Assembly: GCA_964599405.1 (NCBI GenBank)
Contig: CAZRED010000002.1
Location: forward strand, 44,198 to 108,197
Source of the DNA: an uncultured Candidatus Saccharibacteria bacterium
GTDB lineage: Bacteria > Patescibacteriota > UBA1384 > 2-12-FULL-50-11
Direction of reading: 5' to 3'
DNA length: 64,000 nucleotides
Position 1 is the first letter of the stretch, and each line of letters opens with the position of its first letter. A program made the position numbers and the translations under genes. This document shows, piece by piece, positions 5,280 to 33,593 of the stretch. The notes beneath the pieces were generated by a model that was not told the DNA's origin, did not search any database, and saw nothing but the letters and a program-made list of their open reading frames with translations.

Positions 5280-8155
5280 TGGCCGACAAAACCGACTTTC
5301 AGCAGAAATTTGCCAGTCAATTTGCCTTGGAAGAAGCGGTACTAGCCTACTGGCAGAAAAACCAAACTTTCGAAAAAACTCTCGAGCAAACCAAAAACGG
5401 CGAAGTTTTCTCCTTTTACGACGGTCCGCCGTTTATCACCGGTATTCCGCACTACGCGACCCTTTTGCCGAGCATCGCCAAGGACGTGATCCCCCGTTAT
5501 CAAACAATGAAAGGCCGCTACGTCCGGCGCATCTGGGGTTGGGATACTCACGGCTTGCCAGCCGAAAATCAGGTAGAAAAACAGCTCGGGCTGAAGACTA
5601 AAAAAGACATTGAAAAGCTCGGTGTCGATAAATTTATTGCCGCCTGCCGGCAGTACGTGGCTCAAACTTCTGATCAATGGCGTTGGTACATCGACCACAT
5701 TGGCCGCTGGGCCGAGCTGGATAAGGCCTATCGGACCGACCAGTTGAGCTATATGGAATCGGTGATATGGGCGTTCAAACAGCTCTATAACAAAGATTTA
5801 ATCTACCGCGGTCGCCGGGTGTCGCTGTACTGCACCCGCTGCGCCACGCCACTCTCGAAATTTGAAGTAACGATGGACGAAGGCAGTTATCGCGATGTCG
5901 TTGACCCAGGCGTGACGATGGCCTTTCGCTTGAAAAACGATGATGTCTACCTGTTAGCCTGGACCACCACCCCCTGGACGCTCCCGGCCAATATGGCCTT
6001 GGCGATCGATCCGAAAGCCGAATACGTCAAAGTCACAGATGGTAAAAAAAGTTATATTTTGGCGCATCAGGCGCTCGAGCGATTTCAGGACGGCAATCTC
6101 CAGGTACTCGAGCATATTCCTGGCAAGAAACTGGTTGGCGAGAGCTACGAGCCGCTCTTTAACTTTGTTCAAGAACCAACCGAGCCGGATTTCAAAATAT
6201 ACGGCGCGGATTTTGTCTCAATGGATGAGGGCACCGGTATTGTTCATATCGCTCCGGGCTTTGGCGAAGACGACACGAAATTGGGTGAAGCTAACGGTCT
6301 AACCACCCTCTTAACATTGGACGACGAGGGCCATTTTCTACCGGTTATTAAAGATTGGGCCGGAATGTTTTATCGCCAGGCCAACGAGCCAATTACGGCT
6401 AATTTGAAAGAGCGCGGGCATCTTTTCCGCGAGGAAAAAGTTACCCATTCCTATCCGCACTGCTACCGCTGCGACACGCCGCTGATCTACAAGTCGCAGG
6501 TGTCGTGGTATCTGAAAATTGATCAACTACGAGCGGATTTACTGAAGAAAAACAAAGAAATTAACTGGGTCCCCAAACATTTTGGCACGGGCCGGTTTAA
6601 ACATAATGTAGAAACGGCTCCGGACTGGTCGCTAAGTCGTACCCGCTACTGGGGGACGCCGATTCCGGTTTGGGAAACGGCGGATGGGGAGTTGTTTGTG
6701 CCGGAATCGGTGGCGGAGATCGAGAAACTTTCCGGCCAAAAAATCACCGACTTACATCGCCCGGCGATTGACGCAGTGGAGCTGAAACTGCCCAGCGGCA
6801 AGAAAGCCAAGCGAGTCAAAGAAGTGCTGGATGTTTGGTTTGAGAGTGGCTCCATGCCGTACGCTCAGGATCACTATCCGTTCGAACACGAACCAGAATT
6901 CACCAAACATCACCCGACCGACTTTATCATTGAATACACCGGCCAACTCCGCGGTTGGTTCTACTATCTCCATGTTTTGAGCAATGCCCTGTTTGGCAAA
7001 AATAGTTTTAGAAACGTGGCGGTAACTGGTGTGCTGATGGGTAACGATGGCCGGAAGATGAGTAAATCCTACGGCAATTATCCGGATCCGCGCCTAACGA
7101 TTGAAAAATACGGTGGTGAAAGCCTCCGGCTCTACTTTTTAACCAGTAAAATCATGTCCGGCGAAGATACGACGATTGCCGAGGAAGAAATTCGCGAGCA
7201 ATCCCGGTTGCTGAACGTGCTGCAGAATTCGTTTCAGTACTACATCACCTATAACCAATTCCGCCAGTCTGCGGCCAAACCAAAGCCACAGCTGTTAGAT
7301 AAATGGCTGTTAGTGCGGGCTAAGGAACTGGAGTTGGCCGTTGATGCGGGTTTGTCGGCGTTCGATTTTCAAGCTGCCGGAAAAGCCGTTCGGCCGTTCG
7401 TGGAGGATCTTTCCACTTGGTATATTCGGGCCAATCGCGATCGCTTTGTCGCCGGCGATGCGGCAGCGCTCGACACATTGGGCGAGGCACTGCGGCGTTT
7501 CGCTGTGGCGGTGGCGCCAATCTTGCCGTTTAGCGCCGAAACAATATATACAGCGCTTGCAGCGCTAGGTAATGCCAAGGAGTCGGTTCATCTGGAGAAT
7601 TTTCCGGTGACCAGCGAGCTATCCGGCGGTGAGCAAAAACTAGTTGATGATGTTGTCGAAATTCGGGAGATTTGTTCGGCCGGCAATATGTTGCGCTCGC
7701 AAGTAGGAATTTCGCTTCGTCAGCCACTGGGCAAGCTCTACATCGAGGGGAAGACCGTCGTTCAGGCCAGTAAAGACTACCAGCGCATTGTTACGGATGA
7801 GCTGAACGTCAAGGAAGTGGTTTTCGGCGCGCCGAAAAAGAAACTGGAAGAAACAAGCGTTGGCGAAGTAATGATTTATCTCGATACCGAGCTGACGGAA
7901 GAACTGAAGCAAGAAGGCCGTCTGCGCGAGCTGCTGCGCAAGCTCCAAGATGCCCGCAAAAAAGCCGGGCTCAACGTTGGTGAAAAAGTAGTATTGCGCT
8001 ACTACACCGAAGACCCAGAAATGTCAGAATTGTTCATGAAAAACACCAATGCCATCGTCGAGGCGGCCACGTTTTCCAAACTAGAATCTGTCGCTTCACC
8101 CAACGGCCTGGAAGAACTTTCCAGCGAGTCTATTAAATATTCTTTTAAAAAATAA
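5279..8155 (+). CDS. ileS: isoleucyl-tRNA synthetase
   Basis: Class I IleRS with a HYAT-type HIGH region, a KMSKS motif (GRKMSKS) and an editing CP1 domain. ATG at 5279 overlaps the hisS stop (TAATG). Confidence 0.9.
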   Translation: MADKTDFQQKFASQFALEEAVLAYWQKNQTFEKTLEQTKNGEVFSFYDGPPFITGIPHYATLLPSIAKDVIPRYQTMKGRYVRRIWGWDTHGLPAENQVEKQLGLKTKKDIEKLGVDKFIAACRQYVAQTSDQWRWYIDHIGRWAELDKAYRTDQLSYMESVIWAFKQLYNKDLIYRGRRVSLYCTRCATPLSKFEVTMDEGSYRDVVDPGVTMAFRLKNDDVYLLAWTTTPWTLPANMALAIDPKAEYVKVTDGKKSYILAHQALERFQDGNLQVLEHIPGKKLVGESYEPLFNFVQEPTEPDFKIYGADFVSMDEGTGIVHIAPGFGEDDTKLGEANGLTTLLTLDDEGHFLPVIKDWAGMFYRQANEPITANLKERGHLFREEKVTHSYPHCYRCDTPLIYKSQVSWYLKIDQLRADLLKKNKEINWVPKHFGTGRFKHNVETAPDWSLSRTRYWGTPIPVWETADGELFVPESVAEIEKLSGQKITDLHRPAIDAVELKLPSGKKAKRVKEVLDVWFESGSMPYAQDHYPFEHEPEFTKHHPTDFIIEYTGQLRGWFYYLHVLSNALFGKNSFRNVAVTGVLMGNDGRKMSKSYGNYPDPRLTIEKYGGESLRLYFLTSKIMSGEDTTIAEEEIREQSRLLNVLQNSFQYYITYNQFRQSAAKPKPQLLDKWLLVRAKELELAVDAGLSAFDFQAAGKAVRPFVEDLSTWYIRANRDRFVAGDAAALDTLGEALRRFAVAVAPILPFSAETIYTALAALGNAKESVHLENFPVTSELSGGEQKLVDDVVEIREICSAGNMLRSQVGISLRQPLGKLYIEGKTVVQASKDYQRIVTDELNVKEVVFGAPKKKLEETSVGEVMIYLDTELTEELKQEGRLRELLRKLQDARKKAGLNVGEKVVLRYYTEDPEMSELFMKNTNAIVEAATFSKLESVASPNGLEELSSESIKYSFKK

Positions 8156-8158
8156 AAT

Positions 8159-8180
8159 GCCCCGCCGTTTCCGGCGGGGC
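8159..8180. terminator. GC hairpin between convergent ileS and lipoprotein gene (T-run only on minus strand)
   Basis: Perfect hairpin gccccgccg-tttc-cggcggggc. The A-run lies 5' on the + strand, so it reads as a U-run for the minus-strand gene. Confidence 0.6.
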
Positions 8181-8186
8181 ATATGA

Positions 8187-9938
8187 CTAACGGAACTTCC
8201 GTATGATCAGATTTTTTCGCTGCCCGACACCGTTACCGGTGTTAAGACCGCGCGGAGCGCGAGTATGCGGCGGCGATGGCCAGAGATTCTGATAATACTC
8301 TGTCAGCATCGTCACCGTCGTAGCTTGGTTATTAGCTCGCTCGTAGACGAGCGTGTGCTCAAGCGAACGAGCGCGCATCTCAATGGGCACTTCCCAGATT
8401 TTTAGCCCGGAATACTGATTCCGGTCAGGAACATCGCCTATCGATAGGTACGCCTCCCATCCGGCCGGCAGCACTACATCCCACTCCCGAAACTCGGGCG
8501 GGAAGAAGACTCCCGGTGGGGAATTGGGGTCGTACCAAACAACGCCAAGCCACTCACCATTCTTATTGAACGAGTCGAACGTCAACGTTTTTAACGTTAC
8601 CGTTTGCGAGGAGTAGTTGCGTATTTGGACGTCCCAAAGCCAGCCGTCCGGCCCGGCTTCCACCGGATTTGGCAAGAGCAAAACCTCAACAGCATTAGCT
8701 CCTGGCTGACCGTTGATAAAGCTGATCAAGCGACCGATGTCGCCAGACTTCTTCACCAACTCAGTGTGCCCAGCTGACCAATCAACGTGCCGAACGACAA
8801 CACCCGACGTGTTCTCTTCCAGTTGTTGACCAACTGCCGTGGCGTTGGAGAACGGAACCACCAAGTCTAGTCCACCACCGATAAGGTAGTAATTGACGTG
8901 GCCACGCTGGCCCTGGGTGTCTTTCAGCTCGTTAACGAACGCTCCGGTTGAGCGTAAGTCGTTGAGTGACGCCGTATTGAACGACAGCAGACCTCGGTAC
9001 TGCGGTTCATCACCGGGCGCGTTAAGATAGAGCCCGACAAAGAACGCAATCAGGCTACCTAAGTCGGCCAGCGGTGTTCCGAGGTGCGGCGAACAAACAA
9101 AGTAGCAGTTATCTACCGCGTAAGTTTCGCCAAGTACCTCCAGTGCGTAGCGCGTTACTAGACCACCCCACGAGTGAGCGTAAACGTCAACTACCTTGCC
9201 GCTATTGCGGTAGGGTTGAAGTTCATCGCGCAGGCGGGTGGCAGCTGCGACGCCGTCCAAGCGCCAATCATAGCTGAACGAATAGACGTTGGTGTAGCGC
9301 CCGGTTTGCATCAGTTTGCTTGCCAGAGCCGCAAAGTCGTCGTAGGAATCGGCAAAGCCATGAACAATCAAGGCGCTCCGCCCGGTGGCAAAAGCTCCCG
9401 AGCCGGCCACTTTCACCAATTCCGTTTCCTGATCGGGCGGCGGGGCAGAGGGGAAGAAAGCAATAGCAATCAGTCCCATCAGCGTTCCCGGCCCCCGACC
9501 CCGACTAAGCGACTCCTTGGGAACGGTGACGTTGATAGTTTGGCCAACTACTTCGCTATCCAGAACCTCCCAGCCAGTTTCAGTTTTAGCGACAGCGATG
9601 CTATCGCCCGCCTGAGCTGGCTTCGGAAAGCGAACCGTCAAATCCAAGGTTGGTTCTGACGATGGTTCAAGCACGATGCCAGAGCTTGATTCTACGCCAT
9701 GCTGATTGGGCACGGCGTATTGATTGGCGTTCCATTGTTCGACCACCAGTTCGGTGGCAACCGGGAATGTCCCGGCATCAACAACGATGGTGGCGTCTTC
9801 TACCTGCTGCTGAACAGCTTGGTTAGCTGGGATTTGGATAGTCACGACGGAGTTGGGGGAGATTTGGCTTCCGCCGCCTCCACCACCACATCCGTTCAAA
9901 ACGACGAGAATTGTAAATACGAGAGCGAATCTCCTCAT
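8187..9938 (-). CDS. lipoprotein with alpha/beta-hydrolase (lipase/esterase, PGAP1/DUF676-like) domain
   Basis: Signal peptide plus lipobox LNGC followed by a Gly6 linker. GxSxG nucleophile elbow (YAHSWGGLV) in an alpha/beta-hydrolase context. The C-terminal ~200 aa are of unknown function. Confidence 0.6.
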   Translation of the reverse strand: MRRFALVFTILVVLNGCGGGGGGSQISPNSVVTIQIPANQAVQQQVEDATIVVDAGTFPVATELVVEQWNANQYAVPNQHGVESSSGIVLEPSSEPTLDLTVRFPKPAQAGDSIAVAKTETGWEVLDSEVVGQTINVTVPKESLSRGRGPGTLMGLIAIAFFPSAPPPDQETELVKVAGSGAFATGRSALIVHGFADSYDDFAALASKLMQTGRYTNVYSFSYDWRLDGVAAATRLRDELQPYRNSGKVVDVYAHSWGGLVTRYALEVLGETYAVDNCYFVCSPHLGTPLADLGSLIAFFVGLYLNAPGDEPQYRGLLSFNTASLNDLRSTGAFVNELKDTQGQRGHVNYYLIGGGLDLVVPFSNATAVGQQLEENTSGVVVRHVDWSAGHTELVKKSGDIGRLISFINGQPGANAVEVLLLPNPVEAGPDGWLWDVQIRNYSSQTVTLKTLTFDSFNKNGEWLGVVWYDPNSPPGVFFPPEFREWDVVLPAGWEAYLSIGDVPDRNQYSGLKIWEVPIEMRARSLEHTLVYERANNQATTVTMLTEYYQNLWPSPPHTRAPRGLNTGNGVGQRKNLIIRKFR

Positions 9939-10001
9939 GGTTTTCTCCAGTTCCGTGTGTTAAGGAACGTACTAACCAGATTTTACCAATTAATAAGATA
10001 T

Positions 10002-10031
10002 AAAAAAACGGACCACATTGCTGTGGTCCGT
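10002..10031 (-). terminator. rho-independent terminator of gene 10052..10660
   Basis: On the minus strand: hairpin acggaccaca-gcaa-tgtggtccgt followed by T7. Confidence 0.7.
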
Positions 10032-10051
10032 TGAATTCGGACTTTGTCGGT

Positions 10052-11382: not shown

Positions 11383-11395
11383 CGGTTGATCGGCC

Positions 11396-11433
11396 ACAGG
11401 GCAGTTCCAATTGGAGCTGTCCTGTTATTTTTT
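11396..11433 (+). terminator. rho-independent terminator
   Basis: acagggcag-(12 nt loop)-ctgtcctgt followed by tatttttt. Confidence 0.75.
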
Positions 11434-11504: not shown

Positions 11505-11924
11505 ATGGCTGATGAATCGTTCGGGGTGATACCTTTTAGAAAAACCGAAACCGGGCTAGAGTTCCTGCTCGTTAAACATGCTCAAGGGCATTGGGGATTT
11601 CCGAAGGGTCATCCTATCGGTAACGAATCTCATATTGAGACAGCGTTGCGGGAGCTGAAAGAAGAAACGGGGGTTACTGACTGTAATATAATTGGCGATA
11701 AAACCTGGAAACAAAAATACACAATCGAAAAATCTGGTAATTCTACGGAGAAAATCGTTGAGTATTTTCTTGGCGAAGTACTTAGCGCTAATAAAAATGT
11801 AGACAGTAAAGAAATATTAGAATGTCGCTGGTGCAATTTCGAAGACGCTATAGAACTACTGTCACATCCCGAAAGTAAAGGCATGCTGGAGTCAGTATTT
11901 TCTTTCATAAACCCCAAACGATAA
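11505..11924 (+). CDS. Nudix hydrolase
   Basis: Nudix box GHWGFPKGHPIGNESHIETALRELKEETG (GX5EX7REUXEEXGU). Confidence 0.8.
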   Translation: MADESFGVIPFRKTETGLEFLLVKHAQGHWGFPKGHPIGNESHIETALRELKEETGVTDCNIIGDKTWKQKYTIEKSGNSTEKIVEYFLGEVLSANKNVDSKEILECRWCNFEDAIELLSHPESKGMLESVFSFINPKR

Positions 11925-12790
11925 TGGACATACCGAAAAAGATAAGTGACTTAGGCCTACAGCGAGGCCACTATATTGTAATTGGCAGCGGAGTAATGGG
12001 CGCTCTAAACTTGCGACCAATTAACGACATTGATTTGGTCGTTAACCCAAATAAATATGCAGAACTCAAGAACAGAGATTGTGTTGAAAAAGTTCATGAC
12101 GATGAAACCAGGGAGCTGCTCTTCGGTGTCTACGGAATTAAAACCAGCTGGGACTCACCTAATAGCGGCGATAATTTACAGGAGCTGCTTAGCGATTCAA
12201 TTGAAATTGAAGGTGTTGCGTATATTAGCCCCCAACGCTTACTACGTTGGAAGAAGCGGATGAAACGTGCTAAAGACAAGAAAGATATACTGTTTCTAGA
12301 AAAATTCCTAAATACTCAACAAGACAGATTCACAGAAAAACCAACTTTGTACATAATGTGCGGCTTACCATTTGCTGGTAAATCGAGGTTAGCAAAAGAG
12401 CTAAGCGAAAATCGTGGCTGGAAGGTAGTAGCAGTCGACGAAATTAAAACCAAACGTGGGCTACGTGATGTTTGGCAAGATATGAAACCAGAAGATTGGA
12501 CAGATATTTTTGCAGAGGCAGAGCGTCAAACGGAGAGGGAGTTATTAGGCGGTCGAAGTGTGATCTATGACTCAACTAACCACACCAAACATAGCCGGGA
12601 TAAATTGCGTGAGCTTGCAAAACGTTGCCATTGTTCAGCTAAGTTGATTCTGGTTGATGTGTCTCCTGATGTTGCCGAGTTTAGGTGGAAAGCCAATAAG
12701 GAGTCTGGCGAACGGATGGATTTGCCGGAGTGGGCTTTCCGAACGGCTCTTGGCGACTGGGAACCACCGGTAGGGGATGAGCAGGATTAG
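11924..12790 (+). CDS. fusion protein: minimal pol-beta-type nucleotidyltransferase (N-term) + P-loop kinase of the AAA_33/zeta-toxin/chloramphenicol-phosphotransferase-like class (C-term)
   Basis: N-terminal IGSGVMGALNLRPINDIDLVV (G[SG]…DxD NTase motif). C-terminal Walker A CGLPFAGKS plus DEIK/DSTN kinase-like motifs. The start overlaps the Nudix stop. Confidence 0.55.
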   Translation: MDIPKKISDLGLQRGHYIVIGSGVMGALNLRPINDIDLVVNPNKYAELKNRDCVEKVHDDETRELLFGVYGIKTSWDSPNSGDNLQELLSDSIEIEGVAYISPQRLLRWKKRMKRAKDKKDILFLEKFLNTQQDRFTEKPTLYIMCGLPFAGKSRLAKELSENRGWKVVAVDEIKTKRGLRDVWQDMKPEDWTDIFAEAERQTERELLGGRSVIYDSTNHTKHSRDKLRELAKRCHCSAKLILVDVSPDVAEFRWKANKESGERMDLPEWAFRTALGDWEPPVGDEQD

Positions 12791-13065: not shown

Positions 13066-14136
13066 ATGAAAAAATTTAACTCTACTTCCCGTGAAATGCA
13101 GGACAATTTTTTCGCTTGCCGAGGTTGGAGGCGAAAAAAATGTCCACACTGTTTCGGAGAATACTACACGAAACGCGACCTACCACACTGCGGCTCTTAC
13201 CTGTGTGCTGGCAGCTATTCGTTCCTTTCTTTCCCTTCGCCAAAGGCACAGCTCGATATGGCGGCATGTGTTCGCAGGCTACAGACGTCCTTCATTGGCC
13301 ACGGCTACCAACTTCACCGACCGATCGCAGTTGTCCGTAATAACGAGCGAACCCTTTTCGCAAGTACGGCTGGCCAGATTTATGACGATCTGATCTACGG
13401 ACAGATATCAGAGAGCAGCTCGAAGTGGCACTTAGTAGTTCAACCGGTGATCCGGTTGCAGGAGATCGATCTCATTAGCTCCATCGACGGGATCTCCAGC
13501 TCGTTCATACATAGTGCAACTGAGTGTTGGAACACTACACAGGGTAACCACCTTGAGACGTTTGATCGCTGGTTGGATTTCTTTTCCGCCCTCGGTCTAC
13601 ATGCGGGCGGTTTCTGTCTTAAGATCGAGCGTGACACCAATAATTGGGCAGGACGCACTATCACGTCAGAGATGCTTCGGGTGCATTACGGTGGGCTTGA
13701 GGTTGGTGTTGCAAATTTCTTTTTCGACATTTCTCAGCCAAACGGTTCCCTGGCGACTCTGAGCGATGTTGGCGTAGGCCTAGAACGATTAATATGGGCC
13801 GTAAACAAATCGCCTATGTATTTGGATAGTATTGGACCTCCCCCGTGTGTTAGAATGCACACGAGGGTAGTGCTCCACGCAATCCGTACGGCGACGCTTA
13901 TGGCGGGTTCGGGTGTTGTGCCAGGTCATAGAAACCATGGGTCAAAGCTTCGCGCTATGATCAGGTTAGTGACAGAGGAGGCACATCATCTCAATCTTTA
14001 CGAACTCGTAAGCCATTACTACCGACAGTGGTCCACATTTGCGGATTATCTTTCGGTACCTCAGGAGCAGGTTTACTTGATAATTTGGGGAGAAATTAAT
14101 CGAGAACTCAGTCTTGGGGCTGACAGGAATCAGTGA
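13066..14136 (+). CDS. truncated alanyl-tRNA synthetase catalytic-core paralog (class II aaRS fold) with an N-terminal Cys-rich insertion. Lacks the tRNA-recognition, editing and C-Ala domains.
   Basis: Colinear with the AlaRS N-terminal domain: NFFACRGW ~ FLDFFHSKGH; RTLFASTAGQIYDDLIYGQ ~ PTLLFTNAGMNQFKDVFLG; LEVGVANFFFDIS…SDVGVGLERLIWAV ~ IEIWNLVFMQFNR…VDTGMGLERIAAVL; LHAIRTATLMAGSGVVPGHRNHGSKLRAMIRL ~ [32 protein letters not shown]. A CPHC…HC…C insertion of about 45 aa sits after the first motif. Confidence 0.6.
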   Translation: MKKFNSTSREMQDNFFACRGWRRKKCPHCFGEYYTKRDLPHCGSYLCAGSYSFLSFPSPKAQLDMAACVRRLQTSFIGHGYQLHRPIAVVRNNERTLFASTAGQIYDDLIYGQISESSSKWHLVVQPVIRLQEIDLISSIDGISSSFIHSATECWNTTQGNHLETFDRWLDFFSALGLHAGGFCLKIERDTNNWAGRTITSEMLRVHYGGLEVGVANFFFDISQPNGSLATLSDVGVGLERLIWAVNKSPMYLDSIGPPPCVRMHTRVVLHAIRTATLMAGSGVVPGHRNHGSKLRAMIRLVTEEAHHLNLYELVSHYYRQWSTFADYLSVPQEQVYLIIWGEINRELSLGADRNQ

Positions 14137-14146
14137 GAAAAACCAT

Positions 14147-14821
14147 ATGAAAACAAAAACCAAACGTATCTTTCTCGGCGGGGGTGGGGATGCAGAGGAC
14201 TCGAAGCTTATTGATGAACAATTCGTCAAGAGCATTGATCCATCAAAACCTACCATATACGTCCCTAACGCTATGCCCTCAGAGGGCTATCAGTCCTGCC
14301 TGGACTGGTTCCGACCAACAATGAAGGCGCTCGGTATAGCTACAATCGAAATGTGGGAGGATCTTCTCCCCCACCGCCCAATCAACGACATATCTGGGAT
14401 TTACATCGGAGGAGGCGATACGGTGAAGTTGCTAGATGAAATTCGTACCGCTGGCTTTGATCAGTACCTCTCCCAAGTAGCGCAAAGTGGCATCCCGTTG
14501 TACGGTGGTAGCGCTGGTGCGATTGTCTTTGGCGAGGACATTAGAACCGCACCAGAAGCGAGCCACCTAACACCAGGTGATGCAAAGGGACTTAGGATCC
14601 TAGTAGGTCACTCAATCATGTGTCACTACGAACAGCAAGATGAGACGCAAGTCCGGACACTCCAAAAAACAATTGGGATGCCAATCATTGCTATTCCCGA
14701 AAAAGCCGGTGCATGCATCGAGGGAAAAACACTGACGAATTACGGCTCAGTTCCGCTGTATATCTTCCGGGACAACGAGGAAACAGGGCTAGACACAGGA
14801 GAATCCCTTGAACTCGAATAA
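14147..14821 (+). CDS. peptidase family S51 protein (peptidase E / cyanophycinase-like class I glutamine amidotransferase-like fold)
   Basis: IYIGGGDTVKLL…YGGSAGAIVFGEDIRT parallels PepE IVIVGGGNTFQLL…YIGWSAGANLACPTIRT (Ser nucleophile motif). ATG at 14147 chosen; an upstream TTG at 14114 would overlap the preceding gene. Confidence 0.65.
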   Translation: MKTKTKRIFLGGGGDAEDSKLIDEQFVKSIDPSKPTIYVPNAMPSEGYQSCLDWFRPTMKALGIATIEMWEDLLPHRPINDISGIYIGGGDTVKLLDEIRTAGFDQYLSQVAQSGIPLYGGSAGAIVFGEDIRTAPEASHLTPGDAKGLRILVGHSIMCHYEQQDETQVRTLQKTIGMPIIAIPEKAGACIEGKTLTNYGSVPLYIFRDNEETGLDTGESLELE

Positions 14822-14828
14822 CAAAATT

Positions 14829-14868
14829 GGGGGTGTATCACTTAGCGTGCGTACACCCCCTTCTTTTT
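14829..14868 (+). terminator. terminator-like hairpin immediately upstream of the MAT start codon
   Basis: gggggtgta-(14 nt)-tacaccccc followed by ttcttttt. The RBS AAGGA and the ATG of the next gene lie within 10 nt downstream. Confidence 0.55.
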
Positions 14869-14875
14869 AAGGACA

Positions 14876-16123
14876 ATGTCTTACTCCTTTGGACCAAGCG
14901 CAATTAAAAAAGGAAACCTGACTGTATATTCCCGTAGCCCGGTCTGGGACAGTGAGTTCGAGACAATTGAAAGAAAAGGAATCGGGCATCCAGATACTAT
15001 AGCCGATATTTTAGCTAGTAAAGTAAGTCAGGAGTATTCGAGGTATACCATTACACATTGTGACAAGCTCGTTCTTCATCACCAGGTAGATAAACTCATG
15101 ATTATTGGTGGAAAAACTAAAGTCTATTTTGGCGGAGGGGAGTTCACTGAGCCAATTCGTATTATTGTTGCCGGTAGAGCAACATATAACTACAAGAACC
15201 TGGCTATCCCCGTTGAAAATATTGTGCTTAATACAATTAAGGCATATTTTCTGAAACATTTCCCGATGGTAAATCCAGAAGAAGATTTAGTTATTGAGAA
15301 TAGACTCACTACGTACCCTGGACCAGGAACAATCACAACATCGGCGGGTGCTATTGCTAGGATGTTTAATCCTAGAACCGCGAAAGAAGTAAGAGGGTAC
15401 GAAAAATATGTAGCAAATGACACTTCTTACTGCATCTCTTATTATCCTTATTCTTCGCTCGAGACGGCCGTCCTTGGACTGGAGTCTTATTTACAGTCAC
15501 TACAAATTAAGAAAAAGTTTCGGTGGATTGGCTCGGACGTCAAGATAATGGCAGTAAGGAATGGCAACAATGTGGAAGTAACTATGTGCATTCCACAAAT
15601 ATCCGGACAAGTAGAGTCGCTTAATAACTACTGGGAAAACTTAGAAATAATCAGCCCGCTGGTTAACGAGTTTCTTAATAAGAAGTGCCCAAAGTATGAT
15701 TTTAATATCTCTATTAATACAAAGGACGATTACGAGAGGTTCAACGTCTACCTAACTTACACCGGGGCATCGTTATCGGGAGATATTGGTGTGGTTGGGC
15801 GTGGCAACAGAACTAACGGACTCATTACTTCCAACCGGCCGATGAGTGCAGAAGGTACAAATGGTAAAAACCCAAGATACTATTCAGGATTTATATATGG
15901 CGTACTAACAAAACAAATATCGAAGGCACTATTCGATAAGTTGGGGAAACCTGCCGTAGTTGAGATAGTCTCTCAAAACGGGGGGAATTTATTAGAACCT
16001 TGGGAGGCAAGAATCGTTTGCGAAGCAGATCCAAAGAAAATCCAGAAGGTATATGAGTCTTGTTTGAGTAAAATACCCCGTATTACAACAGACTTTATTC
16101 GGGGCAAGATTGTGAATTACTAA
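14876..16123 (+). CDS. archaeal-type S-adenosylmethionine synthetase (methionine adenosyltransferase, PF01941 type)
   Basis: Near-colinear with M. jannaschii MAT: [13 protein letters not shown]; [24 protein letters not shown]…IVAGRAT; [14 protein letters not shown]; [20 protein letters not shown]…[28 protein letters not shown]. Not the bacterial MetK fold. Confidence 0.85.
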
Positions 16124-16130
16124 TACAGGT

Positions 16131-16622
16131 ATGAAGTACCAACCCCTTTTGCGCCACATCGAGATAAAGAGATCCGCTAGAGACGAAGACCTGGCGATAG
16201 TAGTTTTTAAACCCTCATGTCCCCGTGAGGCGATAGCCCGGTTTAGGAGTTATTGCTCAGAGAACCATATCAGTATTTTGCAAAAGAAAGAGACCCTACT
16301 CTCTCGAGATGCTGTTGTCGCTCTTTACCCTAAAATCTTTTCGTTTTCCAATGAGGATCTGAAATTTGGACTCGCTTGGAAGAAACAAACGATTGATTAC
16401 CTAACTTCTGCGCCGAGCAGATGTTTCTTAGTAGGGGGAGAAGATGTTTATAGTAAGTTGTCAAAATATAAATACCGCCTTCGTGACCGGTATGGAAAAA
16501 TTACCCATCCTAAGGCAGTTTTATCTACTGAAGATTTTTTTGAAAAAGTTATAAAAAACATCGTTCATGTTATTGATGAGCACGAGCTCCAAAACGGTCT
16601 CTGGGTATTATTTGATAACTAG
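16131..16622 (+). CDS. nucleoside-diphosphate-kinase-fold protein (divergent NDK-like)
   Basis: AIVVFKPSCP ~ NDK FSIIKPNAV; NIVHVIDE at the position of the catalytic NxxHGSD His; overall length and spacing match the NDK fold. Confidence 0.45.
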   Translation: MKYQPLLRHIEIKRSARDEDLAIVVFKPSCPREAIARFRSYCSENHISILQKKETLLSRDAVVALYPKIFSFSNEDLKFGLAWKKQTIDYLTSAPSRCFLVGGEDVYSKLSKYKYRLRDRYGKITHPKAVLSTEDFFEKVIKNIVHVIDEHELQNGLWVLFDN

Positions 16623-17131
16623 CGGCTATTCTTAATAAATTCTTTGATGACTTGAATGTCCCGGAGCTGTTTTTCTCCATGTAGATAGCTCTTATACCGG
16701 ACCATCTTGTCTGGCTTCATCAATTTCAATCTCTTCCCAGCCCAGTTAACAGGATATGTGTCATTCAAACTGTACCTGAAGATTTTCCACTCAGAACTTG
16801 CATCGTCAAAAATTTTTTGTGAGTCCCCATTGGTTAGTTCTATTATTTGACCTTTATAATTCAAAGCCATCATCAGAACTACCCACTCGCTGTCTATATA
16901 CAATTCTGGCCCAAATTGCACAAATTTCCCAACTTTTTTGAGCAAGCGAGGAAAATCTTTCTCTTGTATATCAATATCAATGTCGTTAATTGGTCTGTCG
17001 GCACCGTAGAAGCGTGCGGCCACTCCGCCCAAGACTTGGTATGGGATATTCTCTTCTTCTAGAATAGAGATGATCCACTTCAGCGCCACGTTAACTCGTG
17101 GAGTTAGGCTGATGGGGCTTAATTCAAGCAT
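16619..17131 (-). CDS. small-molecule nucleotidyltransferase of the Lnu(A)/lincosamide-nucleotidyltransferase-like family
   Basis: YQVLGGVAARFYGADRPINDIDIDI resembles LnuA YWLDGGWGVDVL…HRDIDIDF; about 170 aa, as in that family. Confidence 0.6.
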   Translation of the reverse strand: MLELSPISLTPRVNVALKWIISILEEENIPYQVLGGVAARFYGADRPINDIDIDIQEKDFPRLLKKVGKFVQFGPELYIDSEWVVLMMALNYKGQIIELTNGDSQKIFDDASSEWKIFRYSLNDTYPVNWAGKRLKLMKPDKMVRYKSYLHGEKQLRDIQVIKEFIKNSR

Positions 17132-17154: not shown

Positions 17155-17652
17155 ATGTTTAAAGGGTTGGAGCAAATCAATACTAGCAGTAACGCTAATC
17201 AAAACTTTGCGTTAGTCCTCCAGCTAACGGAGAAGATAGATAACAATGCAGACGCTTCATCGGTTATCAATGAGCTGATAAAAATATACTGGGATTTAGA
17301 CGGAGTCCCTCGCTACCATATAATAGTAAGTTTTATCGAGCATAACCGTACAGACGTATTAGGATTCCTTAAAAAGGTTTTATCTGAAGACACAAGCGAA
17401 CTGATCCGTCATGAGGCCGCTTTTGGTATCGGACAGATGGGAGACTCTACGCAACAGTTCGCACTAGCCGATTCTCTTAAGAACGATACTTCAGCTATTG
17501 TACGTCATGAAGCCGCTATTGCGTTAGCAACTGTTGGAAGCCGGCAATCTATAGGAGTCCTGCAAGAAGTAATAAGTGACGCTAGCGAAGAAGAAGTAGT
17601 GACTGAGTCGGCCGAGTATAGCCTCCGTCTGATTATAGAAAGTAGTAAATAA
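17155..17652 (+). CDS. HEAT/PBS-lyase-type repeat protein
   Basis: Two tandem repeats IRHEAAFGIGQMGD / VRHEAAIALATVGS typical of HEAT-like (PBS lyase) repeats. Confidence 0.55.
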   Translation: MFKGLEQINTSSNANQNFALVLQLTEKIDNNADASSVINELIKIYWDLDGVPRYHIIVSFIEHNRTDVLGFLKKVLSEDTSELIRHEAAFGIGQMGDSTQQFALADSLKNDTSAIVRHEAAIALATVGSRQSIGVLQEVISDASEEEVVTESAEYSLRLIIESSK

Positions 17653-17658
17653 AAATAA

Positions 17659-17687
17659 GGCAACCACATAATGTGGTTGCCTCTTTT
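17659..17687. terminator. bidirectional rho-independent terminator between convergent genes
   Basis: ggcaaccaca-taa-tgtggttgcc with T-rich runs on both sides. Confidence 0.75.
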
Positions 17688-17697
17688 GGGTTGTCTG

Positions 17698-18765
17698 TTA
17701 CCTCCCAGCGATAAAGTCCTCGACTTTCTGCCTGGCTATCCCCAGTGACACTAGGTGCAGTGGGTGTTTGAAGAAGTAGGCGCTCCAATCCTGGTAGCCA
17801 GAGAGGTTTCTGTCTAACGATAGCTTCATAGCGCGAACTGCATCAACCATCACTCCAGCGTTGTTTGGGGAGTCTTCGACTGACATCTTCATCTCAATCT
17901 CAAAGGGGAAGTCACCAAACTGCCTTCCCTTGATATTGATGTAAGCAATCTTATTATCGCCGAGGAATCGTATATAGTCAGCCGGGACTACCTTTATGTC
18001 CTCGGTGCCAGCTTCGAAGATGATTGGATCGGTCTTTGACACCTTCTTCGAAGTAAGACGCAGATGATCTGTGAGGTTGTCAAAATCCATATTCCCACCT
18101 ATGTCCAGTTGGTAGGAATTCTCTACGATTTGTCCACGCTCGCGGACTAGAGATACGAGTGTTCGGTGAAGGATAGTGGCACCAACCTGGCTTTGGATGT
18201 CATCCCCGGCGCACGGAATACCGGCTTGCCTAAACTTCTCCGCCCAGACTGGGTCGGATGCAATAAATTCAGGCACGCCGTTTATAAACGCAACTCCTGC
18301 GTCAAGACAGGCTTGGGCGTAAAACCGCGTCGCTTCCTGTGACCCTACCGGCAAGAAAGAAATACAAATTTCCGTATCGCTCTCTCTAAGTTTCCTGACA
18401 ACAGATTCCGGCTCTTCTCGGAGGGGGAAGTACTCACGCATATGCGGTGCAATTCCATCTCCAATAAAACCCGCCTCAACTGCTACGCCATATGTAGGCA
18501 CGCAAGCGAACTTATGGGAGTTCGTGGGCAACACCCAAATAGCTTCGGAAATGTCTTTGCCAATTTTATTAGCGTTTACGTCGAAAGCGGCAACTACCTG
18601 TATATCTGCAATGAGATATCCGCCAAAGTCATTGTGCATGAGGCCCGGTATGGGAGGTGATGTTTGGCCAACGTCCTTATAGTACTCGAGGCCCTGGATG
18701 AAGGAACTGGCGCAATTTCCCACGCCAACGATTGCGATTTGAATCTTTTTGTTTTTTCTAGTCAT
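17698..18765 (-). CDS. myo-inositol-1-phosphate synthase family (NAD-dependent cyclitol synthase)
   Basis: N-terminal Rossmann IAIVGVGNCASSFIQG (cf. GxGGNNGST); GDDIQSQVGATILHRTLVSLVRERG ~ MIPS GDD(I/L)KSGQTK…; SYQLDIGGNMDF ~ SYNHLGNNDG. Confidence 0.65.
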   Translation of the reverse strand: MTRKNKKIQIAIVGVGNCASSFIQGLEYYKDVGQTSPPIPGLMHNDFGGYLIADIQVVAAFDVNANKIGKDISEAIWVLPTNSHKFACVPTYGVAVEAGFIGDGIAPHMREYFPLREEPESVVRKLRESDTEICISFLPVGSQEATRFYAQACLDAGVAFINGVPEFIASDPVWAEKFRQAGIPCAGDDIQSQVGATILHRTLVSLVRERGQIVENSYQLDIGGNMDFDNLTDHLRLTSKKVSKTDPIIFEAGTEDIKVVPADYIRFLGDNKIAYINIKGRQFGDFPFEIEMKMSVEDSPNNAGVMVDAVRAMKLSLDRNLSGYQDWSAYFFKHPLHLVSLGIARQKVEDFIAGR

Positions 18766-18987: not shown

Positions 18988-19593
18988 ATGCACATGAACA
19001 GAATCAACTTTAGACTCGCAAGAGGGGAAGAAGAGCTGTATGAAATATTAGCTCTGCGGTATAGAATCTTTGCGCTCGAAAAGGGGTGGATCGCAACGAA
19101 CCCAAGTGGCATTGACTTTGACCAGTGGGATTTCGCAAGCAGCCACCTTTGTGCCGTGGATGAATCTGGCAAGGTACTTGGTACCATGAGATTGATTCAC
19201 AATTCGCCCTTCGGATTCCCTGGTGAAGCCGCTTGTCCGTGCTTAATTGGTTCGTCGAAAGATCGGACTTATGAAGTATCGAGACTTGCTGTCGAGGAAC
19301 AGGAAAGAGGAAGACGCTCGCTAATCCTTATTGGTCTCTGCAGGTTAGTGCCTAGACTGGCAAAACTGCACAAGATTGATGATTGGATTGTGGTAGTGGA
19401 CAAGCCGGTTGCAAGAATTCTGAAAGGCCTAGGTTTCAACTTTGACTTCACTGGAGAGGTTGTTGACCATTTGGGATCACCGTGCGTTCCGTTGAGATGC
19501 ACCATGACCGAGGCAAGAAGAGTTCTATACCAGCCAAACTTATCGGAGCTTTTGGCAACTCACATCGAGGAAGCCTATGAGACTATCGAATGA
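18988..19593 (+). CDS. GNAT-fold N-acyltransferase of the autoinducer-synthase/FeeM N-acyl-amino-acid-synthase-like family
   Basis: LRYRIFALEKGW…VSRLAVEEQERGR pattern typical of PF13444 / exosortase-associated N-acyl amino acid synthases. Confidence 0.55.
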   Translation: MHMNRINFRLARGEEELYEILALRYRIFALEKGWIATNPSGIDFDQWDFASSHLCAVDESGKVLGTMRLIHNSPFGFPGEAACPCLIGSSKDRTYEVSRLAVEEQERGRRSLILIGLCRLVPRLAKLHKIDDWIVVVDKPVARILKGLGFNFDFTGEVVDHLGSPCVPLRCTMTEARRVLYQPNLSELLATHIEEAYETIE

Positions 19594-19600
19594 CCCATGA

Positions 19601-19625
19601 CGGCCGCATTACTGCGGCCGTTTTT
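19601..19625 (+). terminator. rho-independent terminator
   Basis: cggccgca-ttac-tgcggccg followed by ttttt. Confidence 0.8.
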
Positions 19626-19661
19626 GTTTAGATTTTTATCTCTAGGTGGTACTTTGGAAAT

Positions 19662-20465
19662 ATGGAAATATTTAATTATTCAGATTTTACACAGAGAAAC
19701 ATTGGAATAATATCCGTTTCTGATCAAGAAAAAGTGCGAACCTCTACGATCGCAATTGCAGGATGTGGGGCAGATGGTGGAGCACCCGCTATATCACTAG
19801 CAAGACTCGGCGTTAGTAATTTTAGGCTAGCAGATCCAGATGTTTTTGATTACAGCAATATTAATAGGCAGGAAGGTGCATTTACTGACACCATTAATAC
19901 GAAGAAAGCAAGGGAGATTGAATTAATAATAAAAAAAATAAATCCAGAGGCTAATGTCACAATCTACACAGAGGGTATTAATGAAGACAATGTGAATGAG
20001 TTTATTGAAGGGTCAGATATCGTCTTGGACGAGATAGACTATAGAAAGCCAAAGTATGCGCTTCTATTACACATAGTGGCGAGGAAACTGAATATCCCAG
20101 TAATTACTACTGTATCAGTTGGGTGGAACGCTTTTCTTTTCTATTTTGATCCATCTGGACTCACGTTTGAGGAGTACGTAAAAAAGGAGCCTCTTTCTGT
20201 TGAAGATAATTTTGAAGTAAACCCTTCTGCTTACGCACCAGAGTTACCCTCATATATTTCTGAAGAACTTTTAAAGGATATACTTTCAGAAAAAGTGGAG
20301 ATACCAGTTGTAGATCCCGCTGTTAGATTGGCGTCTGCACTAGCAAGCTCCTTTTGTATTTTTTGGTTGACTGGCGCAAAGAAGATAATGGCTGTTCCCC
20401 ATTATTACTCGGCGGGTGATTTATTACTGAAGCAGGAAAGCTTTAATAATTTGCGTAGGTCTTAA
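19662..20465 (+). CDS. ThiF/MoeB/E1-like adenylyltransferase (stand-alone, 267 aa)
   Basis: Rossmann nucleotide-binding motif IAIAGCGADGGAPAISLARLGV. No rhodanese, E2 or peptide-clamp domain, and no adjacent ThiS/MoaD-like ORF. Confidence 0.75.
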   Translation: MEIFNYSDFTQRNIGIISVSDQEKVRTSTIAIAGCGADGGAPAISLARLGVSNFRLADPDVFDYSNINRQEGAFTDTINTKKAREIELIIKKINPEANVTIYTEGINEDNVNEFIEGSDIVLDEIDYRKPKYALLLHIVARKLNIPVITTVSVGWNAFLFYFDPSGLTFEEYVKKEPLSVEDNFEVNPSAYAPELPSYISEELLKDILSEKVEIPVVDPAVRLASALASSFCIFWLTGAKKIMAVPHYYSAGDLLLKQESFNNLRRS

Positions 20466-31552: not shown

Positions 31553-33502
31553 TTAGTCGCGGGCGACGCGCCAGACCTCTTCAATGGTAGTAACGCCGGC
31601 CATCGCTTTCAGGATACCGTCCTGCTTCATCGTAATCAGCCCCTCTTTGAAGGCTTGGGCGACAATTTCGCTGGTGCTAGCGTGCTTCAGGGCCAGCTGG
31701 CGGATTGGCTCGGTAATTGATAACACTTCAAAGATACCAATACGCCCGGAGTAGCCACTGTTGTTACAGGCTTCGCAGCCTTGGCCAACGTAAAATTTAT
31801 TGATTTTTAGCGCTGCCGATTTCTCCGGCTCCGGCATTAAGTCCATTTCTTTTTTCACCGCTTCCACATCCTCCGGTTTAATTGGTGCTTCTTTACGGCA
31901 TTTCTCACAGATTTTTCGACACAACCGTTGGCCGACTACTGCATTGAGCGAAGAGGTAATTAAAAACGGTTCAATTCCCATATCGAGCAGTCGGGGGATA
32001 GCGCCGGCCGAGTCATTGGTGTGGAGCGTGGAAAGCACAATATGGCCAGTTAAGGCGGCATTAATGGCAATATCGGCCGTTTCGCGATCGCGAATTTCTC
32101 CCACCATCACCACGTCGGGGTCTTGGCGCAAAATTGAGCGCAAACCGGTAGCAAAGGTGAAGTCAATCTTCGAATTCACCTGGCTTTGGTTGACTTCCGG
32201 CATTCGGTATTCGACGGGATCTTCCATAGTAACGATGTTAATGCCGGGGTCATTAATAGTGCTAATTGCCGAGTAGAGGGTAGTGGATTTACCGGAGCCA
32301 GTCGGACCGGTCACCAGAATCATGCCGTGGGATTTCTTGATGTTATCGCTCAGTATCTTCAAATTCCGGCCAGTGATACCCTGTTCTTCGAAGCTCATTA
32401 CGCCCTTGCTGTGCATTAGAACGCGAGCAACCACTTTCTCGCCGTTGACAGTGGGCAAGGTGGAAATACGGAAATCGACTTTCTCGCCGTCCATCAGAAT
32501 TTGAATCCGGCCATCTTGGGGCAGGCGGGTTTCGTCAATTTTCAAGTTAGAAAGAATTTTAATTCGGGAAATTACGCCACTTTTGACTTGTTTGGGCAGC
32601 GTCAATACTTTGCGTAGCACACCATCCACCCTGAAACGCACCTGAACTTCTTCTTCCAACGGCTCAATATGAATATCAGAAGCTTTTTCCCGAACCGAGC
32701 GTTTCAAGAGTGATGCGACAATTTTGGCAGCTGGAGAGGTTTCGGTAATTTCTTCGTCATCAGCAGCATCTTTTTTGGCTTCTTCGTCTTCGTCAACTGT
32801 CTCCAGTTCTTCGCTGGATTTCACCAGCTCTTTTAGGTCGGCTTGGAGCGAGGTGTATTGGTCGAGAATCCGGTTAACGTCGTCGAGGGTAGTGATAAAT
32901 GGCCGAATAATTTTTCCAGAAGTTTTACGGATAGTGTTGAAAGCCTCTTCGTTTTCTGGGTCGGTCATGGCTACTGACAGTGTGTTGCCTTCTAAAGCAA
33001 ACGGCACAGCCAAATACTTCCGGGCAATTTTATCAGGAATCAAAGCCAGGATATTTTTGGGGATCTGCTTACCGGAGAGCTCAATAAATTGAACATCGCT
33101 GCCGCGGGTTTGGAGCGGACTAATCCGGAATGTCTCGTCGATTGGTTGGAGGGGCGCTTCGGTGGCCGGAGTAGCGGTCAAGGAATCCTTAATCGCCTCG
33201 TTGACTGTGAATTCGATAGTGGTGGCCGCATCCAACTTTAAGACCTGCCTCTTACCGCCGAAATTAGTCGTGACTTTGCGGCTGGGTAGTCGAACTAACT
33301 TGAAAGTGCCCAGATCGGGCAGCTCTACCGCTTCATCAGCGCGGAGTGCTTCTCCAATCACGTCAGTACCGGCTTTCAAATAGGCCCGCACCTTAAATGT
33401 CGGCAACTTCGTCGCTGTGGCGATTTTTTTAATCACATCATTTGTTACTGCCAACTCACCCTCCTCTATGCATGCTAGCAAAAGAGCGACAATTTGACAC
33501 AT
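31553..33502 (-). CDS. pilB: type IV pilus assembly ATPase PilB (GspE family) with an N-terminal HU/IHF-like DNA-binding domain fusion
   Basis: Walker A GPTGSGKSTTLYS, Asp box, Walker B, His box, and a CxxC…CxxC tetracysteine motif. N1 domain of GspE type. The first ~95 aa (VTNDVIKKIATATKL…GTFKLVRLPSRKVTTNFGGKRQVLKLDAATTIEF…AIKDSL) align along the whole length of HU/IHF (BHL fold). ATG at 33502. Confidence 0.85.
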   Translation of the reverse strand: MCQIVALLLACIEEGELAVTNDVIKKIATATKLPTFKVRAYLKAGTDVIGEALRADEAVELPDLGTFKLVRLPSRKVTTNFGGKRQVLKLDAATTIEFTVNEAIKDSLTATPATEAPLQPIDETFRISPLQTRGSDVQFIELSGKQIPKNILALIPDKIARKYLAVPFALEGNTLSVAMTDPENEEAFNTIRKTSGKIIRPFITTLDDVNRILDQYTSLQADLKELVKSSEELETVDEDEEAKKDAADDEEITETSPAAKIVASLLKRSVREKASDIHIEPLEEEVQVRFRVDGVLRKVLTLPKQVKSGVISRIKILSNLKIDETRLPQDGRIQILMDGEKVDFRISTLPTVNGEKVVARVLMHSKGVMSFEEQGITGRNLKILSDNIKKSHGMILVTGPTGSGKSTTLYSAISTINDPGINIVTMEDPVEYRMPEVNQSQVNSKIDFTFATGLRSILRQDPDVVMVGEIRDRETADIAINAALTGHIVLSTLHTNDSAGAIPRLLDMGIEPFLITSSLNAVVGQRLCRKICEKCRKEAPIKPEDVEAVKKEMDLMPEPEKSAALKINKFYVGQGCEACNNSGYSGRIGIFEVLSITEPIRQLALKHASTSEIVAQAFKEGLITMKQDGILKAMAGVTTIEEVWRVARD

Positions 33503-33593
33503 AAATGTCCTCTGAGTGTGACAGTGACAATGGGGGTGGTCTGTGGCAATATGAGCCCATGCAAAAAAGAGGGAGAAATGGCCTGGGTGGTCG

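Follow-up and report, generated by a model that had tools for sequence, protein, structure and literature searches.

We analysed a 64 000-nucleotide stretch of DNA (hereafter the window) from an uncultured Candidatus Saccharibacteria bacterium (contig CAZRED010000002.1), in which a gene for an archaeal-class S-adenosylmethionine (SAM) synthetase is part of a compact gene cluster. This gene (14876–16123, + strand) encodes a methionine adenosyltransferase (MAT) of 415 residues that belongs to a divergent clade of family PF01941, and it is followed after a 7 nt gap by ORF2 (16131–16622, +), which encodes a 163-residue protein with the fold of nucleoside diphosphate kinase (NDK) and an NIVHVID motif. 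Directly upstream of MAT lie two genes, one for a truncated archaeal-type alanyl-tRNA synthetase (AlaRS) catalytic-domain paralogue of 356 residues (13066–14136, +) and one for a Ser-His-Glu hydrolase of the S51 (PepE/cyanophycinase-like) family (14114–14821, +; PF03575, E = 1.7e-22). An intrinsic-terminator hairpin with a T-run (14829–14868, +) separates these two genes from MAT. Downstream, ORF2 is convergent with a gene for a putative minimal nucleotidyltransferase of 170 residues (NT170; 16619–17131, −; motif GG...NDIDIDI), which it overlaps by 4 nt; no terminator lies between the two.

All of these components are of known kinds: PF01941, the NDK superfamily, the AlaRS catalytic domain, S51 and the intrinsic terminator. 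From the identities, folds, conserved residues and synteny observed for them, we favour the reading, at a probability of roughly 55%, that MAT forms a pathway-dedicated SAM synthase module in an acquired genomic island, together with a phosphotransferase of the NDK superfamily, and that the hairpin is an ordinary terminator.

The adenosyltransferase and its neighbourhood

The MAT protein matches the Pfam profile PF01941 (AdoMet_Synthase) with an E value of 6.9e-96 and a score of 321.9 bits (cut-off 27); the match covers residues 18–411 and profile positions 8–395 of 395. None of the MetK domains PF00438, PF02772 and PF02773 was matched in Pfam at E ≤ 0.1, and a tblastn search of the window with E. 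coli MetK gave noise only. Among solved structures, those nearest to it come from archaea, namely the MATs of P. furiosus (6S81), M. jannaschii (7P82), T. kodakarensis (4L4Q) and S. solfataricus (4HPV), with E values of ∼1e-58. A preliminary description of this DNA had placed the protein in the archaeal PF01941 class rather than with bacterial MetK. The open reading frame holds every motif quoted there, and the full-length PF01941 match, the lack of a MetK domain and the archaeal origin of the nearest structures all support that assignment. The same description had the enzyme sitting in a bacterium, which agrees with the housekeeping genes of the window: DnaB, NAD-dependent ligase, the Pol III tau subunit, PilB and UvrD are encoded there, and the DnaB shares ∼81% identity with proteins named Candidatus Saccharimonadales. 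Judged from these genes, the host is a bacterium of the Candidate Phyla Radiation (CPR)/Patescibacteria.

A neighbour-joining tree was built from 85 PF01941 proteins of GTDB species representatives and fetched metagenomic loci; it splits into a canonical group of 48 and a second group of 37 (clade 2). The canonical group is made up of archaea with a small number of bacteria, among them Desulfurobacterium and an Acidobacteria metagenome-assembled genome (MAG). The window MAT lies apart from the canonical archaeal MATs in clade 2, whose other members come from Patescibacteria, Nanoarchaeota, Woesearchaeota (DPANN), actinomycetes, Hyalangium (myxobacteria) and some MAGs labelled as Gammaproteobacteria or Bacteroidetes. 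Its best score against the NCBIfam MAT models is 295 bits, with cut-offs at 435–577; together with five other clade-2 proteins (273–350 bits), it falls under every one of these cut-offs. Five canonical-clade controls, two of them from bacterial MAGs, pass an NCBIfam MAT cut-off despite their truncated sequences. On these comparisons, the window MAT is a member of a divergent PF01941 subfamily and not a standard archaeal housekeeping enzyme.

In the structure of the T. kodakarensis enzyme (TkMAT), His33 is catalytic, Asp201 and Asp283 bind the ribose, Tyr271 stacks on the adenine, and His62, Asn64 and Asn161 contact the methionine carboxylate; in its gate loop, Asp144 contacts adenine N6 and Leu145 the methionine side chain (PMC3853416). 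Window residues His38 (in GHPD), Asp221, Asp303 and Tyr292 align to the first four of these residues (His33, Asp201, Asp283 and Tyr271) and do not vary among 23 homologues. Of the carboxylate contacts, two (His68 and Asn181) are kept and the third, Asn64, is replaced by Gln70 in the subclade of the window; other clade-2 members keep Asn. The gate loop is different: its Asp-Leu pair is 98–100% conserved among the 48 canonical proteins, whereas 97% of the 37 clade-2 proteins carry Pro-Gly followed by an insertion of 10–20 residues. The GDDG motif likewise becomes GD(E/I)G in clade 2. The protein thus looks like an active adenosyltransferase whose core active site is intact and whose substrate gate is remodelled.

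In two independent assemblies (locus L083, 6812–8036, −; L084, 402–1626, −), the PF01941 gene, which lies beside a divergent NDK-like gene, is split into two overlapping open reading frames of 196 and 213 residues. The split could be real, reflect a programmed frameshift or stem from an error common to both assemblies.

Clade-2 genes share a neighbourhood that the canonical genes do not have. Of the 37 clade-2 loci, 27 have an AlaRS-like gene no more than 10 kb from MAT, as against none of the 48 canonical loci (Fisher p = 3e-14, with kinship ignored), and an S51 gene lies near MAT in 13 of the 37. Gene order varies among phyla, from AlaRS-like, S51, MAT in the window to MAT, AlaRS-like, S51 in L002, L096 and L097 and a convergent arrangement in L001. 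A gene for a radical-SAM (rSAM) protein of the SPASM type is located directly upstream of MAT in L086, L087 (Hyalangium), L096 and L097; in L001 it lies close by but on the other strand. The order rSAM, MAT, AlaRS-like, S51 is found in L096 and L097, while L086 and L001 hold the same four genes otherwise arranged. The partner rSAM protein reaches no NCBIfam family cut-off (best 94 bits versus 380), the weak best matches being tungsten-cofactor maturase, prokaryotic viperin and MoaA; assignment to a named radical-SAM system was therefore rejected. In L096 (8247–11270), two AlaRS-like paralogues of 384 and 393 residues, ∼24% identical to each other, flank the S51 gene downstream of the rSAM–MAT pair.

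In Streptomyces and Hyalangium, genera that have an ordinary MetK, the clade-2 MAT gene is found within larger clusters. The actinomycete cluster (L014, 5198–16144; also L012 and L015–L029) consists of HAD, DUF1932 reductase-like, AAA_33 kinase, APH, MAT, APH-like, His-phosphatase, seryl-tRNA synthetase (SerRS), GT4 and AlaRS-like genes. The presence of a complete extra SerRS suggests a supply of aminoacyl-tRNA or self-resistance. GT4 and PIG-L genes occur in L007, L008, L011 and L083, and a gene for myo-inositol-3-phosphate synthase (MIPS) is near MAT in L002, L006, L008, L070, L081, L085 and the window. A mycothiol-like pathway (MIPS, GT4, PIG-L and an aminoacyl-tRNA synthetase-like ligase) is attractive for L007, L008, L011 and L083, but was not adopted here, since the window has neither GT4 nor PIG-L. 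A literature search on archaeal-type MAT in bacteria and CPR, on PF01941 and on AlaRS-like proteins with SAM returned nothing specific, and the gene set is not described in the literature searched.

The base composition of the cluster sets it apart from the core genes of the host. The GC content at third codon positions (GC3) is 0.56–0.69 in housekeeping genes (IleRS, DnaB, LigA and MurA-like), compared with 0.40 in MAT, 0.41 in ORF2, 0.47 in NT170 and 0.39, 0.38 and 0.32 in the HEAT, NUDIX and ThiF-like genes described below; the AlaRS-like, S51 and MIPS genes are intermediate (0.50–0.53). The region at ∼11.5–22.7 kb is thus probably a low-GC mosaic island, acquired horizontally by a Saccharimonadales chromosome.

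The alternative that holds up best, although we consider it unlikely, is that the PF01941 gene is simply the sole SAM synthetase of the cell, taken from archaea in place of MetK, and that its neighbours are passengers retained by common descent. CPR genomes are reduced, neither a bacterial metK nor a canonical ndk is present in the 64 kb, and all core catalytic residues are kept; in addition, the nearest loci (L081 and L085, 74–80% identity) could owe their shared gene order to descent alone. However, the linkage to AlaRS-like and S51 genes persists at 33–56% MAT identity, in other phyla, in other gene orders and in a gene fusion, and clade 2 also occurs in the MetK-bearing Streptomyces and Hyalangium. 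The GC3 of MAT is atypical of the core genes of this genome, and the protein falls under all of the NCBIfam MAT cut-offs that canonical-clade bacterial copies exceed. The housekeeping and pathway-dedicated readings are not mutually exclusive. In the pathway-dedicated reading that we prefer, the clade-2 MAT would supply SAM, or a close sulfonium analogue, to a dedicated small-molecule pathway, a role that fits both the radical-SAM partners and the occurrence of the gene in actinomycetes and myxobacteria that also bear MetK.

The NDK-fold protein

ORF2 has no match in Pfam (E ≤ 0.1), NCBIfam, PADLOC or PHROGs, and a word-indexed homologue search found only six proteins. A profile built from these six was compared with the sequences in the PDB; the five best matches are NDKs (E = 0.046–0.54), with the K-P and N-x-x-H segments aligned. 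An AlphaFold model based on the six-protein alignment has a predicted local distance difference test score (pLDDT) of 81 and a predicted template-modelling score (pTM) of 0.78, and in a Foldseek search of the PDB with this model, each of the top 50 matches is an NDK (E = 2e-7). An exhaustive search of 1.84 billion representatives with the family profile yielded 80 proteins at E ≤ 1e-3, 27 of them at E ≤ 1e-10. Among 67 aligned proteins (the window ORF2 and 66 profile matches), 35 are NDKs of Pfam family PF00334.

Lys27, Pro28, Arg118 and His146 are invariant in 67 of 67 aligned proteins, and the Asn is conserved in at least 90%. Within the core family of 27 members, Lys27, Pro28, Tyr66, Trp83, Arg118, Pro127, Asn143 and His146 are all invariant. 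From HMMER alignments and general knowledge of NDKs, we take Lys27, Tyr66, Arg118, Asn143 and His146 to correspond to Lys12, Tyr52, Arg88, Asn115 and the phospho-accepting His118 of NDK. ORF2 carries HVID in place of HGSD and has STEDFF opposite GTIRGDF, the alignment there being uncertain. We conclude that ORF2 is a very divergent but true member of the NDK superfamily and the founder of a small family that has no Pfam model; as its conserved residues suggest, it probably still forms a phospho-histidine. The NDK-like fold and the catalytic histidine context proposed in the preliminary description are accordingly retained, on the Foldseek result, the alignments and the invariant residues, while a match to the Pfam NDK profile is absent.

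An ORF2-family gene is located within 1 kb of MAT in eight of ten lineages, with gaps of 2–7 nt or an overlap of 8 nt; given this spacing, the two genes are probably co-transcribed. The tandem arrangement is found in the window, L081/L082, L085, L088 and L089–L091, and in all of these a convergent NT170-type gene follows. The NDK-like gene of L085 (3293–3779) is frameshifted into two pieces. L083/L084 and L011 have the two genes in divergent orientation, with a MAT that shares only 36% identity with the window protein, and the order in L094 is MAT, S51, ORF2. The pairing of MAT with an NDK-like gene, already remarked on in the preliminary description, is therefore real, as it recurs in three arrangements (tandem, divergent and S51-separated); the local turnover of ATP and SAM suggested there for the pair is a putative role. 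One of the family members found away from MAT lies in L092 (1462–7249) in an apparent operon, where it comes after PLP-decarboxylase-like, HAD–GT4 fusion and APH-like kinase genes and is accompanied by a HAD hydrolase gene, upstream of pheST, these domain labels having been assigned by reading the sequences rather than by profile search.

In the module as we picture it, the NDK-like protein would move the γ-phosphate between nucleotides and so resupply nucleoside triphosphate (NTP) to MAT and to the adjacent putative nucleotidyltransferase; alternatively, it may phosphorylate a nucleotide of the pathway. A different and doubtful possibility is that it has no phosphotransferase activity and serves as a non-catalytic nucleotide-binding or regulatory subunit of MAT, in a role like that of the mammalian MAT2B beta subunit. 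The tight adjacency of the two genes, with probable translational coupling, would suit such a subunit, as would the distance of ORF2 from canonical NDKs, with no Pfam match and no evident equivalents of Arg105 and Ser120. Against this, the invariance of Lys, Tyr, Arg, Asn and His in 27 members would be unexpected for a dead scaffold, Lys, Arg and His (and Asn at 90% or more) hold across the 67 aligned proteins including true NDKs, and two lineages carry the NDK-like protein without a nearby MAT.

The upstream partners and the hairpin

The AlaRS-like protein aligns to residues 11–267 of A. fulgidus AlaRS (E = 1.5e-9), including the archaeal N-terminal Cys motif, and scores 50 bits against TIGR03683, for which the cut-off is 745. 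At least 13 of 14 homologues share the motif-2 arginine (Arg130), Asp234 and Glu240/Arg241 of the GLER segment (the Asp-x-Gly-x-GLER alanine site). The protein has neither an editing nor a C-Ala domain and, of the tRNA-recognition domain, no more than the beginning. The ligase is predicted from these residues to be still adenylate-forming. The S51 protein scores 80.6 bits in Pfam (cut-off 23.9), and its triad, Ser133 (in GGSAGA), His171 and Glu196, is conserved in 14–15 of 15 homologues; its true start is probably the ATG at 14147, giving 224 residues as in L081. In L085 (123–1991), a relative with 74% identity, the AlaRS-like and S51 proteins are fused in a single open reading frame of 622 residues. 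The pair may ligate an amino acid to an acceptor and trim it.

The only truncated AlaRS-like enzyme known to have been characterized is AcmF of ascamycin biosynthesis, which aminoacylates a 5'-modified adenosine and has lost the residues for ATP and alanine activation (PMC12945691). An adenosyl-type acceptor for the AlaRS-like protein of the window is conceivable, if speculative, because AcmF acts on such a 5'-modified adenosine.

This precedent bears on the idea that clade 2 is a neofunctionalized adenosyltransferase that makes no SAM and uses another nucleophile or NTP, with the AlaRS-like and S51 proteins aminoacylating and trimming its product. The residues that gate adenine N6 and the methionine side chain (Asp144 and Leu145 of TkMAT; PMC3853416) are replaced in 97% of clade 2, where the loop is also longer, and the subclade of the window has further exchanged Asn64 for Gln. 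We nevertheless regard this change of function as improbable: the residues for the methionine amino group, the ribose and the stacking on adenine are retained, as are two of the three contacts to the carboxyl group, and the frequent pairing with radical-SAM proteins is most simply explained by ordinary SAM supply.

More speculative again, and to our minds a long shot, is that MAT, the AlaRS-like protein and the S51 protein together represent an unrecognized and widely transferred pathway to an aminoacylated adenosyl- or nucleoside-type metabolite, with ORF2 phosphorylating a nucleotide of the pathway rather than maintaining the general NTP balance. The product would then be an aminoacyl-adenylate mimic or a similar antimetabolite, by the same logic as ascamycin, used by episymbiotic CPR/DPANN cells and actinomycetes. 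The partners would be specific to each lineage, namely a viperin/MoaA-like SPASM rSAM protein, GT4 with PIG-L, kinases or the NDK-like/nucleotidyltransferase pair.

The hairpin between the S51 gene and MAT (GGGGGTGTA...TACACCCCC, 14829–14860, followed by TTCTTTTT at 14861–14868) has a folding energy of −23.7 kcal/mol (z = −4.6), and none of 200 shuffled sequences folded equally well. Its pattern occurs once in the window, with 0 occurrences expected by chance, and a repeated element was rejected on that account. The stem starts 8 nt past the S51 stop codon (14821), leaving just 7 nt in between (14822–14828), and the end of the T-run is 7 nt from the MAT ATG. A custom scan of the window for hairpins followed by T-runs gave at least seven gene-end intrinsic terminators, this one included; equally strong sites lie at the 3' ends of genes at 8150–8199 (−), 10001–10050 (−), 11383–11432 (+), 17648–17697 (−), 19579–19628 (+) and 52600–52649 (−). 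The terminator at 19579–19628 closes the gene labelled GNAT201, and the co-directional ThiF gene begins 34 nt further on. A hairpin and T-run also separate the S51 and MAT genes in L081/L082, with an identical stem, and in L085, with the same outer stem and a different interior. Promoter prediction gave no sigma-70-like site between the S51 gene and the MAT ATG. Rfam gave no family at the gathering threshold anywhere in the window, and the sole match at E ≤ 10 within 14300–14950 is one chance lncRNA. On its sequence and position, the hairpin is most simply read as an ordinary intrinsic terminator at the end of the AlaRS-like/S51 unit upstream, in which case the expression of MAT needs read-through or an unrecognized promoter.

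The preliminary description had offered the hairpin as a possible regulatory checkpoint, that is, an attenuator or riboswitch expression platform gating MAT by SAM or another signal; its position is kept in three lineages with a conserved outer stem and the lack of a predicted promoter may make read-through important, but this least probable of the alternatives is set aside because the stem starts too close to the upstream stop codon to leave room for a sensor, so that an aptamer would have to sit within coding sequence, Rfam has no match at the gathering threshold or at E values up to 10, and terminators of the same type end at least six other genes of the window, GNAT201 with ThiF 34 nt on among them.

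Returning to the pathway-dedicated module, several observations weigh against it. MAT and ORF2 could be the only SAM synthetase and NDK of the cell, as no other is encoded in the 64 kb. The synteny counts disregard phylogeny, and Streptomyces accounts for 15 of the loci. The window has no homologue of the rSAM, GT4 or PIG-L partners in its 64 kb, and the pathway may differ or be degenerate in this lineage. ORF2 has no clear equivalents of NDK Arg105 and Ser120, as read from the alignment, and its family also occurs without MAT within 6 kb in L092 and L093, the copy in L093 being solitary.

Databases label the clade-2 proteins 'methionine adenosyltransferase' and go no further. Clade 2 with its gate-loop signature, its AlaRS-like/S51/rSAM neighbourhood and the MAT-linked NDK-like family appear to be undescribed. 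Should the module make a new SAM-derived or aminoacyl-nucleoside metabolite, it would represent new biosynthetic logic in episymbionts; should it be a SAM supply unit only, it shows that bacteria with tiny genomes gain archaeal-class core enzymes inside larger cassettes. With the NDK-like family, a textbook enzyme superfamily gains a branch of divergent sequence.

Surrounding genes and known systems

The low-GC island begins with a NUDIX hydrolase gene (11505–11924, +; PF00293, E = 1.9e-18). It shares one base with the following gene (11924–12790, +), which encodes a fusion of an MNT-like nucleotidyltransferase N-terminal domain (GSG...NDIDLVV) with an AAA_33/PSTK-like kinase (PF13671, E = 1.4e-18; weak match to the PSTK model TIGR03574). 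A relative of this fusion protein with 29% identity is encoded near MAT in L001, and AAA_33 kinases are also present in the actinomycete cluster. NT170 has weak profile matches only (PF14907, E = 0.0027; TM1012 nucleotidyltransferase, E = 0.64); it is kept beside ORF2 in L081, L082, L085, L088 and L089–L091. Its start is only 23 nt from that of a divergent gene for a HEAT/PBS-lyase-repeat protein (17155–17652, +; PF13646, E = 1.2e-20), which is conserved in L081/L082, so that hardly any space is left for a promoter. A bidirectional terminator with a 12 bp stem and T-runs on both strands (17658–17682) separates the HEAT gene from that for MIPS (17698–18765, −; PF01658, E = 3.8e-27; TIGR03450, E = 8e-113). 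The segment at 18988–20465 (+) encodes an acyltransferase like the exosortase-associated and acyl-homoserine lactone (AHL) synthase types (TIGR03694, E = 3e-21), with its own terminator, and then a ThiF/E1-like adenylyltransferase (PRK08223 family), whose GC3 of 0.32 is the lowest in the island. Outside the island, a PilB/T2SSE ATPase (31553–33601, −) carries an N-terminal HU/IHF-type domain (PF00216, residues 54–141, E = 7.6e-8) ahead of its MshEN and T2SSE domains, which is an unusual fusion.

Two further origins of the cluster were considered. PADLOC has no match for MAT, ORF2, the AlaRS-like protein, the S51 protein or NT170, only the ThiF-like E1 protein matching generic E1–E2 models, and an anti-phage defence system was rejected on this basis. 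A phage origin is disfavoured, since the core genes have no match in PHROG and IMG/VR contains no ORF2 relatives, only distant PF01941 genes. The latter lie on six viral contigs (L098–L103) and encode proteins 29–33% identical to the window MAT; none of the six contigs has an NDK-like member.

Among characterized enzymes, the window MAT is closest to those of M. jannaschii, T. kodakarensis, S. solfataricus and P. furiosus, with which it shares the full length of PF01941, the GHPD histidine, both ribose-binding aspartates, the stacking tyrosine, two of the three His/Asn contacts to the carboxylate, and GRGNR and GKNP motifs. It differs from them in belonging to a separate clade, in the exchange of the gate Asp-Leu for Pro-Gly with the 10–20-residue insertion, in reading GDIG for GDDG and HHQ for HHN, in scoring under the NCBIfam cut-offs and in having a conserved accessory gene cluster, which canonical loci are without. 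ORF2 is 14–20% identical to NDKs (PF00334) and departs from them in matching no Pfam or NCBIfam model, in having HVID for HGSD and no evident Arg105 equivalent and, as read from the alignment, in a spacing between the His and the C-terminal Trp that is ∼3 residues shorter. Whereas NDK is a universal housekeeping gene, the ORF2 family comprises ∼27 clusters and is MAT-linked. The hairpin resembles intrinsic terminators in its GC-rich 9 bp outer stem, short loop, T tail (seven of eight) and location directly after a stop codon; its only oddity, the short distance to the next start codon, is met again at another site of this compact genome.

The S51 protein resembles PepE and cyanophycinase in its Pfam match above the cut-off and its conserved Ser-His-Glu triad, but scores under the NCBIfam cut-offs (53 versus 156 and 35 versus 127) and is fused or adjacent to an AlaRS-like protein. 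As a set, the nearest parallel is offered by AcmF, AcmD and AcmE of the ascamycin system (an AlaRS-like transferase, an AlaRS and a de-alanylating hydrolase): in both cases, a truncated AlaRS-like gene lies beside a hydrolase gene and a gene for an enzyme that makes a 5'-modified adenosine, and the actinomycete version of the cluster also holds a complete extra aminoacyl-tRNA synthetase (SerRS). The analogy is an inferential one. The hydrolase here is of the S51 and not the α/β type, sulfamate genes are lacking, and the present family differs from AcmF in that the motif-2 Arg, the Asp and the GLER segment are retained.

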